Part shown: in pieces, positions 45,384 through 57,165 of the stretch
How the letters are laid out: each line of letters opens with the position of its first letter
Position numbering within the stretch: position 1 is the stretch's first letter
Program-made: the position numbers and the translations under genes
Source: Psammoneis japonica
Lineage: Eukaryota
DNA: 57,165 bases
Reading direction: 5' to 3'
Assembly (NCBI GenBank): GCA_008632985.1
Contig: QPGO01000215.1
Span: 62,001-119,165, forward strand
Notes under the pieces: generated by a model
What the model was told of the DNA's origin: nothing
Seen by the model: only the letters and a program-made list of their open reading frames with translations
Database searches by the model: none

Positions 45384-47790
45384 ATGAAGGAAGGAGTGCA
45401 AGTTCAGTCACAGCTGCAATTTGTTCAGGAGCAACGACAAGTTTTGCAAAAAATCACCATTCGGGTGGACTTCAGCACCAAGGTGTGCAAACGATGTGTC
45501 AAAGGCAAACCACACAAGCATGGGCATGACAAGACATGTCACAAGAACCCGAATGCAGCCAATTGTGTTTGTCTGGATGACATGCTGATTTCAGCATTAA
45601 AGAAAGAAGTGCCCAAGTTTCTGTTGTCACTGCCCCGTGAGTGCAAAAACAATTTGATGCAAAGAAAGATTTTGTCACATGACTGCCTGTTCCCCCCTGA
45701 AGATGATGATGAAGAGGAGGTTGAAGAAGACTTCCATGACATGCCTCCAGAGAATGCAGCCATTGTGCACAATGTGCCAAGCAGTGAGGCACCAAAGAGG
45801 GGAGTTGAACCATTTCCACACAAGAAGACAACTGCCAGTCTCCTGAAGAAGGCAATGCCAGCAGCAATGGCAACTTGGAGTTCATCCAAGAAAAATCAAT
45901 TGGCTCATGAAAGTGTCAGAGTGCCTCTGCCAATTTTGGCATTGCTTGAATTTGTTCACTTGCAGTGCCCTCGACTTTGCAAAGACCGTGACGGTGGCAA
46001 GAAGCTTGGTGGCGGTGACAAATGCATCAAATGGCACCAAGACCACTTTCCACATGGCAATTTGGCATTCACTGTTCCAGCTGCAGGAAGGCAAGTCAAC
46101 GAAACTCCCAATCCCATGCATGAATCTGTTCAAGGCACTGCAACATGTCTTGCACGGCAGGAGCTCAATCTCCCTGACACACCTCTGTTGTGCACTGCCT
46201 GCAGCTCTGGGACTCATGGACATGCGAGGGTTGAGTGTGATGGAGCAAGGTTTGCAAGCAGTGCAACCTCAGCATTCAGAATGGTTGGCCGCACCAATTG
46301 GGAGCATGGCATGACCTTAAAGTGCTCTTGTTGCAAGGCTCTTTTCAGGTCGAGTGATGGGCATGTGTCCTGGGTGCCCTTCCAGACTGTGTTCATGCCC
46401 TGTTTCCTGGCAGACCCCAAGTGCTGCTCAAAATCATCATTCTTTCTTGCTCCATGATGAGGTGTCTTCTTGGTTGGAAGAGGCTGCATTGACAGAATCA
46501 AGCGTGCAATGGTTCTCTCGATCACTTTTCAACAGTCAAAATTGCCAGCATGAAGAGCTGGAGCCATCACACTGCAGCTCCAACAAGACCAACAAGGATG
46601 CAGCATTTCCAGACTTGCCTTCTTTGCAAGAATGGCTTGGACAGTTTCCTCCTTCCAGCACTCAGCTGCTTGCCTTGGCTCTTGAAGCCAACCAGTCAGA
46701 TCTGACGGCTTGTGGTGTGAGTGACAATGATCGTCACAAGCAAGAGATTCAATCACATCCATGGATGCAAGACTTCAACCGCAGTTGACCAAACATGCTT
46801 CATCACTGCAAATTGTCCATCATCTTTGGGTGCCAAAGCGCGCACAACACAGTCAACCGATGCCTGATTTGTGGCCTTTGTGGGTCTTGTCAACTCCACT
46901 GCCATGGCTGACTGTTCCCACAAGATTGAGCAGATGGCTCATCGCAACAACTTTGCACCCAAGTGTGTGCACACCAACAGTGCATGGCCGAAGCTTGACC
47001 CTTTCTGCCAAATTGTCTTTGGTGTTGCAATCATTGCATGACTTGGATTGTTCCATGCAATTCAACGCATCACAAAATTCATGTGTTGTGACCACAAGGA
47101 CTTCAACTTGGCTCTCCAACAGCTCTCAAGTTGCCTGTGTGCACTCAATCAAGAGGACAAATCTGGTGTCATCATGGCACTGCGAGATGGAACTGTGAAC
47201 GGAAAGATCCAAGACTCACAAGAAATGTCCAATTCAAAACAAAGCAAGAGGTGGATGCAGCACCGTGGTTCTCTCATGCGCAAAGTTCCCGCCCCAGCAG
47301 TGCCATCTCAGATGTGCCTGAGAGAGTGGTGGTGCAAATTCAAGGTTACGAACACTGAAGGTGAGCCACCAGGACAAGGCAAGTTGGACAATGGAAAGAC
47401 TCCATTCATGGCAGGGGCAAGGCAAGCATTGAATGCATTGATTGAGAATGTCCAGCACTTGCCCGAGATTGTTGGAGACTGCCACCGGGAGATCAAGCCA
47501 TCAGCAAAGTCGAGGCACAAGCTTTCCCGGTGGATTGCCAAAAAAGGAGAGTCCTCACTTGAAAAGCACCGCCATCTTCTAGCACACTTTGCAAACATGG
47601 GAATGTGATGGGAGCTTGCAGACAGTCTCAAGCTGCGAGGTGCTGCAAAGTGCAATTTGAAGCTGTGGCATGAACTTTTTGGAGTGGACACAGCCAAGGA
47701 AGTGCTGAATCATTTTCAAAATGAGCCGATGTTCCCATCCCATCTCAAGCTCCACAAAATCAACCGCAGGGCATCAAAGCATGGTTCGAA
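45384..47790 (+). pseudogene. Degenerate DDE-type transposase-like gene with N-terminal Cys/His motifs
   Basis: Fragments CKRC...HGHDKTC, DNDRHKQEIQS, LGLFHAIQRIT, and GESSLEKHRHLLAHFANMGM..ELADSL.L.GAA resemble a transposase-like family recalled from diatoms; superfamily not assigned. Confidence 0.45.
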
Positions 47791-49049
47791 ATTCCTGCAG
47801 CACCAAAATCTTTGAGACTGCCCTGAGGACAAGGGGAAGAATTCTTTTCTGAGCACTTGCTGTCTCAGAGACAGCGGCACTCTCAGCATCCCAAGCACCC
47901 AACCAACAGTCGGTGTCAGTGCCCCAAATGCACTTCCAACCCTGAGCTGCTGCCACATGTCCAAAGGCAGCAACACTCCAGCACTGTTGGTGATGAAGGC
48001 AGCAATGGCAACAAGCATGAGTTGCTGTTCTGCAATTTTGATGAGTCTTTTTTTTGTTTGGAATTGATGCCAAAAACTCACCGCAGCAAACTGCCAATCA
48101 AGAACAGCCACAACACGACAGTGTCCGTCACTTCCAATGGGGCAACGCACTTTTCAAAAATCTGGTTCCTGCACTGATCCACACAAAATTTGTGCATGTA
48201 GAATGTGCTGCGAAATTCGCAGTGATCGATTTGAATTCACTCTGACACACACAAACATCTCACGGCAACGACGCCACAACATCGGCAATGGCCACACACG
48301 ACAACAACAGCCAACTGGGGGGTTCTGGTGCACCGAGACGACAACTTGCATGATGATGAGTGCAGCAAAAAATGTTGGATGACAATGATCCAGTCATTTT
48401 GGGAGCTGATTGAGCGATTGGTGACAACTGATTTTTGACACGTGCAACTTGGCACTGAAAGCACGCAGAGTTTTCGGCCACGGTGGGACTGCTGATTTTC
48501 ACTTTTTGTGGAGTGCACTTGGAGTTTTCTCATTTGTTTGCATCGATGAAGCACTGAATGAGCACACGACAAGAGATTTTGACAAAAAGTTGGATTTTCA
48601 CTCATTGTGGAGGATTGTCACGGGGTTTTTAGCACGGTGAAGCACGGAGGGACAATTTTTGCCCAGATTTTGCAAAGATCCTGTGTCCCATCAAATTCGC
48701 GTGCATGACATCAGCGGATTGATGTGTTTTTTTGTGTGCAAGAAGAGCGATGACGTCGACACACCCAACATGACAGACTTCCGTGTTGCAGTCGTGATGA
48801 GCATGGCGTTGTTGTGTTCTGCTTGCAGATGCCAGCACCAGCTCTGTGCAAGCAGAGCTCCACTGGGAACCAGATTTTTGAAAGTGCACTGCCCCATGGC
48901 ATCAACAGCTCAATGCAATTGCACCTCCACTGCAACCTCCCACATTTCTGGTTCTGACACCGCCATTGCCATGGATGCAACCAAGCATTGGTGCATTTGT
49001 CAGAGTCTGTCACCCTTTTGCTTCCCTGCCAACCTCCAAGCAGCACATC

Positions 49050-49980
49050 CAGCAGCAGCAATCCCCACTCCAGAGCCAGCAGCATCTGTGTCAAAGAAGA
49101 GAAGAAGAACTGAAGAAGAGTTTTGCTGAGGGCTGGAAGAGCTGTGTGCAAAATGGCCTCCGTGGTTGTGTCATGCACATGTTCCCATGCAAAAAACCAC
49201 CATGGGATTCTTTTAGAGAGAACACATGCATTGCAGTCAATGTTTGTCAGCAATCCTGCGGCATCAATTCCCACTCCACAGCCAGTGGCATCTGTGCCAA
49301 AGAAGAGAACAATTTTGGAAGCACAATGTGCAAAACGGCCCAAGTGGTCACGTTGTGCATGCTCGCACCTGCGGGTTCCTTCTGGAGCTGACAAATTACA
49401 GTCAACCAACATTCAATGTGTCCACAGCCAGCAGCATCTGCCAGAAGCATCTGCGTCAAAGAAGAGAATGATTTTGGTGTGAGTGCCTGAAGCATTGTGT
49501 GCACAATGGCACATGTCACATCGTGCATGCCCGCACCCTGCGGGTTTCTTCCAGAGCCAATGCATTGCAGTCAACCAACATTCAATGGGTTGAAAGAGGG
49601 GCAAACTCCTGCTGGTGCCAACAAATCTCTAATCTGTGTCTTTCCATGGCTGATTGTGTGCCGTGATGTTGTCGTCAGCAGAGAACAAAACAAAGAACAC
49701 CAGCCATCTGCACCAGCAGAAAACAGAAAAGAACACAACAAATTTTGGGAGTCATCAAACAACAAATGCCACCATCAAACTCAAGACATTTACATTGCCT
49801 TTGTGAATTCTCTTGCCCGTCGCATCACACCAGTGCCAGTCGACTCATGAACAATCTTGTCGGTGGCAGAGAAAAACCACCAGCCATCAGCACCAGCAGA
49901 AAATGGAAAAGAACGCAATGACTTTGAGGATTCATCAAACAACAAATGCCACCACAAAACTCAAGGCATTTGCATGACCT
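49050..49980 (+). repeat. Degenerate ~160-205-bp tandem repeats (two unit types)
   Basis: GCATCTGYGYCAAAGAAGAGAA at ~49082, ~49287 and ~49447; CAGCCATC.GCACCAGCAGAAAA...CATCAAACAACAAATGCCACC at ~49701 and ~49881. Confidence 0.75.
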
Positions 49981-56345: not shown

Positions 56346-57000
56346 TGTGCTTGTTCAAGACAGGGCTTGAGATGCTTGCTCTTTTTCTCCCATTCATGGT
56401 TTTGCTGCAACTTCTTCTGGTGTTTTGGACAGGTGTGACTTCACGTCCATGTCAGGGGGATTCAAACATCCGCTGCCATGTCTGTCCTTTCACTCCAAAA
56501 TCTTGTGCAGAGAAGATCTCCATGATTGCCGTCCTTGGACTTGTTGGAGTTGTTGTTGCCTGGGGAACCATTGGCGGTGCTTGGGCTTCCCAAAATGTGA
56601 CCAGCGGGGTTGACAAGATGTTTGTCGCACACACAGGAAGGTTTGCAAGCCTTGCCAATCAGGTTGCCCAGGTTGTCATGTGCTTCATCATCATGTTGTG
56701 AGATGACCAGTGCTCTGGGAGATCCATTGAAGTGTTGCCACATTGCAAGAAGAGCCTGTCACGGAACTCTTGGCATGAGAGCTCTGTGCCATTCAGCGTT
56801 GAAGGGTGCGCTGACAGCCATGCTCCAGTCTTGGTGCTGCGCTTTGCAGCTCTGGCCTGGAGGTTGGGCAGTGTCCTGAGGATCATTTTGAGAGTCTCCT
56901 TGTGCACTTTGACTTTTTGTTTGGCTGCCCTGCTTCTTGTTTCACTTTGTGCGTGGTGTCCTTGGGGACTGCAGAGGAGAACTGAGAGCAGTGGCAGAGT
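56346..57000 (-). mobile_element. 3' fragment of an RLE-bearing non-LTR retrotransposon (NeSL/Utopia/HERO-like)
   Basis: TGAWLSAHPSTLNGTELSCQEFRDRLFLQ(C)G, HDEAHDNLGNL, HGDLL..FWSERTDMAADV, and KSHLSKTPEEV...EKKSKHLKPCLEQ match the RHN...PD-(D/E)xK endonuclease region with Y>H/C and R>H/C. Confidence 0.75.
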
Positions 57001-57165
57001 GAGTCAATCACATGCAAGCACGTGAGAGCAGCACTTGCTTCACAGCTGTGAGCTGCAGATTCTGCTGGACAAGGGATGGACAGTCCTGAGAATTAGATTG
57101 GGAGGGCAGATGGGGGCAGTCTTGGGGTCTTTGTCAGCCAAGGTCTTGCCAACTGGTGCTGGCAG

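Follow-up and report, generated by a model that had tools for sequence, protein, structure and literature searches.

Surviving TpA sites in repeated DNA of a diatom follow a two-base 3' context and suggest a targeted mutator

The TpA (TA) sites that survive in repeated DNA of Psammoneis japonica are probably the remainder left by a mutational process that is aimed at repeats and obeys a two-base 3' context rule. The window analysed here, a stretch of 57,165 nucleotides, is diatom nuclear DNA. On the sequence, its TA pattern reads as the fingerprint of a mutator and not as evidence for a TadA-like enzyme.

TA counts along the window were 1–7 per kb in depleted domains versus 28–70 per kb elsewhere, and the borders between the two fell within a few hundred bases. 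The depleted domains are located at 1–14200, which is made of repeated DNA; at 14551–16400, which continues a repeat copy (copy B, below); at 17601–21200, which is also strongly CpG-depleted (CG 9 to 19 per kb); at 25301–30000, whose last part consists of two tandem ADP-ribosyltransferase-like ORFs; and at 43801–57165, the whole of a domain that reaches the right-hand limit of the window (1 to 7 TA per kb). The TA-normal gene islands contain ordinary diatom genes. The island at 21301–24000 (minus strand) encodes a prolyl-tRNA synthetase with a WHEP domain, 80–84% identical to diatom ProRS, and the genes of the island at 30401–43000, of the GRIP-domain, MORN and RING-finger kinds, all lie on the minus strand. 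Intergenic DNA inside the islands is TA-rich. The TA sites of the two islands (n = 619) were used as the undepleted reference.

The observed/expected ratio (O/E) of TA was 0.06 in depleted DNA (37.7 kb) versus 0.60 in gene islands (15.3 kb), and that of TG+CA was 1.67 versus 1.12. Only TA and CG were lowered in depleted DNA. Within the right-end domain, the stretch 45700–57165 had a TA O/E of 0.03, a (TG+CA) O/E of 1.81 and a CG O/E of 0.29. The change requires a T directly 5' of the adenine, since TA was depleted and AA and GA (O/E 0.99) were not. AA and TT stood at 1.26 and 1.27 in depleted DNA and at 1.22 and 1.10 in islands, so an earlier remark, in a sequence-only reading of 45700–57165, that AA runs remain abundant there holds. 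CA and TG had O/E values of 1.70 and 1.64 in depleted DNA, the raised CA being a product of the TA change. Both strands were equally affected overall (CA 3996, TG 3888), with a local excess of CA over TG in 43801–50000 (735 and 607).

Repeat status was gauged for 1–10500 from the contigs of run X1, the only run found to contain the DNA, of which 5298 aligned at a likeness of at least 80%; this depleted DNA is thus repeated. By far the highest summed contig depth in this run belonged to a MITE-like element located on the plus strand at 8873–9267, in which 8 TA are left; it is about 390 bp long and bounded by terminal inverted repeats of 11 bases. A second copy (14108–14499, 14 TA left) interrupts repeat copy B, and a relative at 16520–16913 has only its ends in common with the element.

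Four internal repeat pairs (6278 aligned bases) were used to polarise the loss of TA. Copy A (762–6052) is the partner of copy B (10539–16248), which the MITE splits into 10539–14117 and 14499–16248, with 92.7% and 88.4% identity; a tandem duplicate on the plus strand (29047–30304; 29047–29678 against 29682–30304, 93% identical) formed the third pair. CA was aligned with TG in 68 columns, where about 10 were expected from CpG decay. TA was aligned with TG or CA in 28–29 columns and was present in both copies in 18–19. After removal of the TpA- and CpG-linked differences, 53 transitions and 83 transversions were left. TA was therefore lost in place, independently in each copy, after duplication. 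We estimate that each copy lost about 80% of its TA sites, whereas background transitions affected 0.4% of sites in a copy. This places the rate of TpA loss far above background, by roughly 200-fold per base pair, and several-fold above CpG decay in the same DNA. The sharp domain edges, the TA-rich island spacers and the independent loss in duplicated copies together support a targeted mutational process, not drift.

For 45700–57165, the sequence-only reading had tallied by hand about 24 residual TA sites, 16 of them YTAR, 8 with one TAY strand and none RTAY, and had concluded that adenine appears most mutable before C or T. An exact scan returned precisely these counts (TTAG 5, CTAA 5, TTAA 4, TTAC 3, GTAG 3, CTAG 2, TTAT 2). 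The neighbouring dinucleotides of the stretch itself predict 7.5 YTAR, 11.8 mixed and 4.7 RTAY. The binomial probability of at least 16 YTAR among 24 was 3.6e-4 on this regional background and 1.3e-5 on the NTAN make-up of the gene islands, and that of zero RTAY was 0.005 and 0.001, respectively. Because the excess was first spotted in this stretch, the other depleted domains provide the fair test. They contained 56 YTAR, 47 mixed and 8 RTAY sites (n = 111), or 45, 36 and 8 when duplicates were reduced to one copy (n = 89), and the latter set differed from the 150, 320 and 149 of the islands (n = 619; chi-square p 3.9e-7). Among oriented TA-N reads, depleted DNA had 166 TAR and 60 TAY, and the islands had 620 TAR and 618 TAY, which gives an odds ratio of 2.8 (p 4e-11). 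Equal loss of TAR and TAY, which had been set as the refutation of the earlier claim, was not what we found, as TAR was retained 2.8 times better. The proposed comparison of NTAN counts between depleted domains and islands likewise showed residual contexts that differ from background, and they differ from polarised lost sites as well.

Purine versus pyrimidine at the first neighbour captures only in outline what is in fact a more detailed two-base rule. Surviving TA mostly precede purines (TAAA, TAGA), and the second 3' base has no less influence than the first; TARA is the best survivor descriptor. TARA was present on at least one strand at 101 of the 135 residual TA sites, compared with 181 of 619 sites in the islands and 9 of 43 sites where TA had been lost (Fisher p 1e-22 for residual versus island, where the island baseline is coding DNA, and 4e-10 for residual versus lost). 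Without duplicates the residual figure was 86 of 113 (p 9e-21), and in 45700–57165 it was 22 of 24. TARA describes 75% of the survivors versus 53% (72/135) for YTAR. Its share was 0.72 and 0.76 where the local density was no more than 15 TA per kb, and 0.30 and 0.29 where it was higher. Retention by the two 3' bases was 2.2x for TA+RR, 0.8x for RY, 1.0x for YR and 0.2x for YY, and reached 3.3x for TAAA and 2.3x for TAGA. By the first 3' base it was 1.9x for A, 0.28x for T, 0.75x for C and 1.05x for G; the contrast at this position thus comes mostly from A and T, with TAT the most sensitive context and TAG average. The earlier claim of greater mutability before C or T therefore holds as a better retention of TAR than of TAY, but it fails for C and G, which do not differ. 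The effect of a purine at the second base held within first bases A, C and G (odds ratios 2.2, 5.2 and 4.3). The rule was derived post hoc from one 57-kb window, with 135 sites, or 113 without duplicated copies.

Context dependence of TA survival was also shown by the repeat pairs, in baseline-free tests with 15 to 43 sites per class. TARA was found at 11 of 15 sites with TA still in both copies, at 14 of 28 with TA in only one of them and at 9 of 43 from which TA had gone in both (p 6.5e-4). Among the 28 half-resolved sites, TARA contained the altered adenine in 2 cases and the retained one in 13 (p 0.007); the side that changes is the unprotected adenine. TARA survivors were protected on one strand in 83 cases and on both in 18, which under this rule would require a moderate rate on the other strand. 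A simple two-rate fit agreed only roughly with the data, and an asymmetry of TARA between the plus (44) and minus (24) strands (p 0.02; background 910 versus 946) is unexplained.

The residual contexts could also arise with no differential loss, from background composition (A- and T-tracts) or from the places where new TA are made. AA and TT are indeed somewhat over-represented in depleted DNA, and since about 94% of TA has disappeared, a part of the residual sites must have arisen anew. However, the flanks of TG and CA in these domains, many of which were once TA, are ordinary, with A at frequencies of 0.22 and 0.26 in the first two places on the 3' side, and TARA is as rare among polarised lost sites as stated above. 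The TARA sites kept in both copies predate the duplication and are thus survivors, not new TA. Columns in which TA faces a transversion are few, the commonest being TA versus TT with 3. This explanation is largely refuted, and we regard it as highly improbable.

A TadA/ADAT-type adenine deaminase, with a pocket that prefers 5'-TAY-3', would remove TAY first and leave YTAR. Changes only from A:T to G:C at TpA, the requirement for a 5' T and the better retention of TAR reads are consistent with such an enzyme, though the changes would fit attack on either base of the pair. At half-resolved sites with one purine and one pyrimidine flank, 18 of which were informative, the Y-followed adenine changed 13 times and the other 5 times (p 0.10), a weak trend in the direction that the earlier reading had claimed. 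An ADAT2 homologue is named as candidate by the authors of a preprint on Bigelowiella natans (Mettrop et al., bioRxiv 10.64898/2026.01.13.699255). Yet TAC was not lost more than TAG (p 0.12) and, with second-position A excluded, was retained at least as well (p 0.26). TACG was retained 1.6 to 1.85x (p 0.015 for all sites, 0.07 with duplicates dropped), loss was not concentrated where C or CG follows the adenine, and the second 3' base was as strong a determinant as the first. We therefore consider a TadA-type enzyme unlikely. A Pfam search of the window's ORFs gave no match to a deaminase family. The sequence-only reading had favoured an enzymatic, context-specific adenine mutator over drift. 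The differences between contexts support a context-dependent, targeted process, and the behaviour of TAC and TACG speaks against a TadA-like 5'-TAY-3' preference in it; the context rule argues against assuming a TadA/ADAT analogy.

Loss of TpA removes every Tyr codon and all but one of the stop codons. Annotation of such DNA should therefore reckon with long ORFs that are spurious or degraded, with little Tyr and much Cys and His. On the plus strand, 45265–47991 holds what is left, with frameshifts, of a gene for about 900 aa from an unnamed, TE-like family. A search of the protein library gave 41 homologues, the best of them with E 9e-46. Tyr makes up 1–6% of 40 of these homologues and is absent from one 127-aa fragment, and the window copy contains a 384-aa ORF (45303–46454) without Tyr. 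No match to a viral or transposase Pfam family was obtained among 131 ORFs of the window.

This gene bears on the possibility that the attacked base is thymine. Thymine could be oxidised at TpA by a TET/JBP-type enzyme to 5-hydroxymethyl- or 5-formyl-uracil, mispairing with G, or mismatch repair could always resolve T:G or A:C at TpA to G:C; T after purines (RRTA) would then be sensitive and T after T-Y (TYTA) protected. TpA-biased thymine modification occurs in dinoflagellates and kinetoplastids. The data are strand-symmetric, so every statement about context fits the paired T equally. At 19 columns with Tyr in the homologues, the remnant has His 8 times, a coding-strand change of T to C, and Cys 2 times, and the excess of CA over TG in 43801–50000 would fit attack on the T of the non-transcribed strand. 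However, 9 of its 10 polarised Tyr sites were RTAY, with TAY on both strands, and the excess of His may therefore reflect the strand only locally; when all long ORFs in depleted DNA are taken together, Cys (4.6%) and His (4.4%) are raised to the same degree. The window holds no direct evidence of modified thymine and no gene for it. We think attack on thymine quite unlikely.

The process we favour would turn T:A into C:G at TpA steps of repeated DNA (TA to TG or CA), at a rate that exceeds that of ordinary transitions by roughly two orders of magnitude. Both adenines of a step are apparently hit independently, each strand probably being read on its own, and the rate of each adenine seems to be set by the next two bases in the 3' direction along its own strand. 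Pyrimidines there would speed the change and purines slow it, so a site would last longest with TARA on at least one strand, and a TARA site that changes would be altered at its unprotected adenine. We suggest that the gradient reflects how firmly the adenine stacks on 3' purines, a poorly stacked A in T-A-Y being presumably the easiest to flip out. The agent may be a DNA-acting enzyme, and the likeliest candidate is an adenine deaminase whose inosine product is read as G. More tentatively, the process could be a diatom genome defence with a polarity opposite to that of fungal RIP, effected by a stacking-set DNA adenine/thymine modifier of a kind not yet described, although we hold this somewhat doubtful. 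Such an enzyme would act on duplex or transiently opened repeat DNA and convert TpA adenines to guanine strand by strand, its specificity coming from base stacking (TA+YY fast, TARA slow) and not from a tRNA-like pocket. The context rule could rank candidate deaminases or thymine oxidases by their action on TAYY versus TARA.

Like RIP of ascomycete fungi, the diatom process affects repeats, makes one transition in one dinucleotide, alters both copies and spares single-copy genes. RIP, which requires a cytosine-methyltransferase-like protein and a sexual cycle, makes TpA from CpA (C to T), whereas the diatom process destroys TpA (A:T to G:C). The TpA excess expected of RIP was not found (O/E of TA 0.06, CA 1.70, TG 1.64). 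Hyper-editing of repeat dsRNA by ADAR resembles the diatom pattern in the change of A to G, the preference for a 5' U and the targeting of repeats. ADAR favours a 3' G, whereas in the diatom TAT is most sensitive and TAG average, and the products are equal on both strands. Editing of retroelement RNA by ADAR was rejected, as the changes arose in inserted DNA copies after duplication and not in pre-integration sense RNA. TadA, ADAT2-ADAT3 and TadA base editors also change A to G with a T (U33) directly 5' of the target. The native loop context of TadA is UACG (TACG in DNA), and TadA-derived base editors have context preferences. In the diatom the native context is among the better-retained ones and sensitivity is set by two 3' bases (YY versus RR), a preference that to our knowledge is not described for any TadA/ADAT family member.

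In a full-text literature search the only precedent found was the 2026 preprint on B. natans, and no report of TpA hypermutation in diatoms was found. In mutation-accumulation lines of B. natans, integrated giant-virus and virophage DNA undergoes TpA to TpG/CpA hypermutation, for which an adenine deaminase is proposed as agent and defence against invading DNA as function (Mettrop et al., bioRxiv 10.64898/2026.01.13.699255); the preprint's main text identifies no enzyme. B. natans, as described there, and the diatom have in common an almost exclusive change of TpA to TpG/CpA, TpA loss with CpA and TpG gain, confinement to regions beside normally evolving host genes and a rate orders of magnitude above background. 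The two differ in lineage (a stramenopile and a chlorarachniophyte, rhizarian), in targets, which are multi-copy repeats in the diatom (the MITE, the frameshifted TE-like gene and ORFs without family) versus viral inserts, and in evidence, which is comparative in the diatom versus de novo mutations in culture. Depletion is far deeper in the diatom (TA O/E 0.03–0.06 versus a Rho of 0.45 in the B. natans viral region), so that the same signature is nearly complete in this window. The preprint's main text contains no flank analysis; the graded two-base rule and the evidence for separate strand hits go beyond it and give a concrete fingerprint that can be compared with the published Bigelowiella de novo mutations. 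If the diatom process is a genome defence, the two cases together would suggest that such a defence is widespread in SAR algae.

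The window is an alternation of two kinds of DNA, distinguished by TA per kb along its length. Gene islands (21301-24000 and 30401-43000) have 28-70 TA per kb, whereas TA-depleted domains (1-14200, 14551-16400, 17601-21200, 25301-30000 and 43801-57165) have 1-7. The island genes, all on the minus strand, encode ordinary eukaryotic proteins, namely a prolyl-tRNA synthetase with a WHEP domain and GRIP-domain, MORN and RING-finger proteins. The prolyl-tRNA synthetase shares 80-84% identity with its diatom counterparts, which marks the window as diatom nuclear DNA. The observed/expected ratio (O/E) of TA was 0.06 in depleted DNA compared with 0.60 in islands, that of TG+CA was 1.67 compared with 1.12, and that of CG was 0.52 compared with 0.99. 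TA and CG were the only dinucleotides lowered in depleted DNA. AA and TT were not, and undepleted AA excludes pol-eta-like WA mutagenesis, in agreement with the sequence-only reading. The spacers separating the island genes are also TA-rich (70 TA in 36001-37000) and the borders of the depleted domains are sharp, so selection opposing a genome-wide bias is not what keeps TA in genes. Particular DNA is the target of the loss.

CpG loss in the depleted domains has two grades, 7-34 CG per kb (17001-21000 and 45001-57165) and 34-58 CG per kb (1-16000), but TA is as low in one grade as in the other. It seems that TA is lost sooner than CpG decays, or that the two marks are independent of each other. 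A TA-rich patch at 24826-25202, which includes a short TA microsatellite and the single N of the window (24883), lies between 188-base direct repeats 98.9% identical to each other (24695-25427). A recent insertion or a join in the assembly would account for it.

Depleted DNA is repeated, since 5298 contigs of X1, the one public sequencing run (in contig form) that contains the window, match 1-10500 at a likeness of at least 80%. They differ from the window at 2002 places (C>T 425 and G>A 394 compared with T>C 311 and A>G 288), totals that could stem from lost TA in the window copy or equally from decayed CpG in the other copies. An element of more than 5 kb is present twice in the window (copy A, 762-6052; copy B, 10539-16248). 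Also present in two copies (8873-9267 and 14108-14499) is a MITE-like element, about 390 bp long and bounded by 11-base terminal inverted repeats; a relative at 16520-16913 has only the ends in common with them. Summed X1 contig depth was about 100,000 over 8751-9100, which overlaps the first MITE copy, compared with 450-3000 elsewhere. The MITE copy inserted in copy B (14108-14499) keeps 14 TA, compared with 8 in the copy at 8873-9267, and thus looks younger than its surroundings. Two metagenome contigs with a perfect match to a 20-base word from the MITE were rejected as chance matches in unrelated DNA (62% G+C, CG O/E 1.2).

Four repeat pairs within the window, with 6278 aligned bases at 88-93% identity, gave a test free of any background model. 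CA in one copy faced TG in the other at 68 columns, as would be left by an ancestral TA that changed independently in each copy. CpG decay predicts only about 10 columns of this kind (220 CG kept in both copies, 131 in one). TA faced TG or CA at 28-29 columns and was present in both copies at 18-19. Excluding TpA- and CpG-linked differences left 53 transitions and 83 transversions. From these counts, TA loss since duplication was estimated at about 80% per copy, compared with 0.4% background transitions per site per copy. The estimated TpA change rate is roughly 200-fold the background per base pair and several-fold above CpG decay in the same DNA. Since TA was lost in place and independently in the repeat copies, imported DNA of odd composition is ruled out, and so is the passive compositional drift that the sequence-only reading had already thought less likely.

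About 24 surviving TA sites had been tallied by eye in 45700-57165, and an exact scan returned identical numbers: 16 YTAR (TA-purine on both strands), 8 mixed (one strand) and 0 RTAY (neither strand). The expectation from the neighbouring dinucleotides of this region is 7.5, 11.8 and 4.7, and p for at least 16 YTAR is 3.6e-4 against that background and 1.3e-5 against island TA sites. As the pattern was spotted in this region, the fair test is in the other depleted domains, where we counted 56 YTAR, 47 mixed and 8 RTAY (n = 111). Some of these sites are mutual copies, lying in two internal repeat pairs; after removal of one copy per pair, the counts were 45, 36 and 8 (n = 89; p = 3.9e-7 against 150, 320 and 149 in islands). 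The YTAR excess is real and beyond chance. In a tally of all NTAN words in depleted domains and islands, residual frequencies were not proportional to background: words containing ATA or TAT were nearly absent (ratios 0.15-0.5) and TTAA was 2.4-fold over expectation, while GTAC (0.7), GTAA/TTAC (1.1) and CTAC/GTAG (1.6) were unremarkable.

The sequence-only reading took YTAR survival as a 5'-TAY-3' target preference reminiscent of TadA. Its direction held, as TAR reads were retained, relative to island TA sites, 2.8x as well as TAY reads (p = 4e-11). At sites with TA in one repeat copy and TG or CA in the other (half-resolved sites), the informative cases also went this way, with 13 changes of the Y-flanked adenine against 5 of the R-flanked adenine (p = 0.10). 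However, the retention effect of the first 3' base came from A (1.9x) and T (0.28x). TAC (0.75x) and TAG (1.05x) did not differ (p = 0.12), and with A at the second position excluded TAC was retained no worse than TAG (p = 0.26). TACG, the context of the anticodon loop that TadA edits, was retained better than average (1.85x, p = 0.015; 1.63x without duplicates, p = 0.07). Both results speak against a model based on the TadA pocket, which is left as a less likely rival, and the preference is therefore not TadA-like in any specific sense.

The best single descriptor of surviving TA is TARA (TA, purine, A; TYTA on the opposite strand) on at least one strand. With two flanking bases considered per side, A was the second base 3' of TA in 52% of oriented residual reads compared with 26% in islands. 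TARA sites made up 101 of 135 residual TA, compared with 181 of 619 island TA and 9 of 43 polarised sites lost from both repeat copies (p = 1e-22 and 4e-10). They were 22 of the 24 TA in 45700-57165 and 86 of 113 residual TA without duplicated copies. Their share was 0.29-0.30 at more than 15 TA per kb and 0.72-0.76 at lower density. Retention of each two-base 3' context relative to islands was 3.3 for TAAA, 1.7 for TAAG, 1.4 for TAAT and 0.96 for TAAC; 2.3 for TAGA, 0.54 for TAGC, 0.51 for TAGG and 0.24 for TAGT; 1.85 for TACG, 1.06 for TACA, 0.35 for TACC and 0.19 for TACT; and 0.63 for TATG, 0.25 for TATT, 0.10 for TATC and 0 for TATA. By class of the two 3' bases it was 2.24 (RR), 0.97 (YR), 0.77 (RY) and 0.22 (YY). 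When the first base was A, C or G, a purine at the second position favoured retention (odds ratios 2.2, 5.2 and 4.3, respectively). Tracing lost TA by tetramers is unreliable because words with double TG/CA steps (TGCA, TGTG), CpG decay and ancestral composition confound it, and TG gains per TA loss between depleted DNA and islands (TAA about 0, TAG 0.58, TAT 0.66, TAC 1.16) were not relied on.

In the repeat pairs, TARA accounted for 11 of 15 TA kept in both copies, 14 of 28 kept in one and 9 of 43 kept in none (p = 6.5e-4). TA kept in both copies is older than the duplication, and the TARA excess reflects survival, not creation, of TA. At the 28 half-resolved sites, the changed adenine was in TARA 2 times and the unchanged one 13 times (p = 0.007). 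The result is consistent with the two adenines of a TA step being hit separately, depending on the 3' neighbours of each one, and accounts for the protection of most survivors on a single strand.

Coding remnants in depleted DNA bear the same mark. A frameshifted remnant of a gene of about 900 aa lies across three frames at 45265-47991 (plus strand) and has 41 homologues at E <= 1e-3, up to 1227 aa long. Tyrosine is 1-6% in 40 of these 41 and absent from one 127-aa fragment; the 384-aa ORF at 45303-46454 in the window copy has zero tyrosine. The homologues are unnamed and match no Pfam family except DUF6729 below threshold, and the product may be an undescribed mobile-element protein. Tyr, Cys and His made up 0.22%, 4.6% and 4.4% of 12 long depleted-DNA ORFs, compared with 1.6%, 1.6% and 2.0% of island proteins, the outcome expected of a change of TAY codons to TGY and CAY. 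Both strands of depleted DNA (1-21200, 25301-30400 and 43000-57165) contain 131 stop-free stretches of at least 110 codons, because TAA and TAG have been erased and TGA is the sole remaining stop. Most are probably not genes, and such DNA is a trap for gene callers. A Pfam search of the 131 ORFs matched only ADP-ribosyltransferase, at 28846-30493 (plus strand), where two tandem ORFs from a duplicate (29047-29678 / 29682-30304) match PF01129 (NAD:arginine ADP-ribosyltransferase, E 2e-11) and PF03496 (ADP-ribosyltransferase exoenzyme). These ORFs are TA-poor and lie at the border of a depleted domain. A 643-aa ORF at 2338-4266 (minus strand) had no relative in a word-index search at near lengths and no usable Atlas match.

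Among surviving TA of all depleted domains, TARA was on the plus strand 56 times and on the minus strand 27 times (44 to 24 without duplicated copies, p = 0.02), whereas the background predicts parity (910 and 946). CA (735) also exceeds TG (607) in 43801-50000. At 19 columns of the 45265-47991 gene where outgroup proteins have mostly Tyr, His occurs 8 times in the window copy, Cys 2 times, Phe 5 times and other residues 4 times, which hints at a local strand bias. Nine of the 10 His/Cys sites are RTAY, where the TAY model makes no prediction, so they do not bear on the contrast of R and Y. The context rule may be overlaid by a strand bias.

The agent is most likely an enzyme directed at repeated DNA that would deaminate adenine at TpA steps. 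Attack on the thymine paired with this adenine, by oxidation or one-sided mismatch repair, is a rival explanation, and the sequence alone fits either target alike. The gradient of TA loss, TA+YY > mixed > TA+RR with A most protective, would be expected if the target base had to leave the helix: TpA is the weakest stack, and adenine before purines would be held by purine-purine stacking.

A full-text literature search found one report of TpA-specific hypermutation, in Bigelowiella natans (2026 preprint, bioRxiv 10.64898/2026.01.13.699255), and none on diatoms. Its authors propose an adenine-deaminating enzyme, and the main text of the preprint contains no flank analysis. What is new beyond this precedent is a testable context rule for TpA loss, which is derived from one window and needs genome-wide replication. 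Compared with B. natans, the diatom represents the same kind of process in a second lineage, carried much further in the window.
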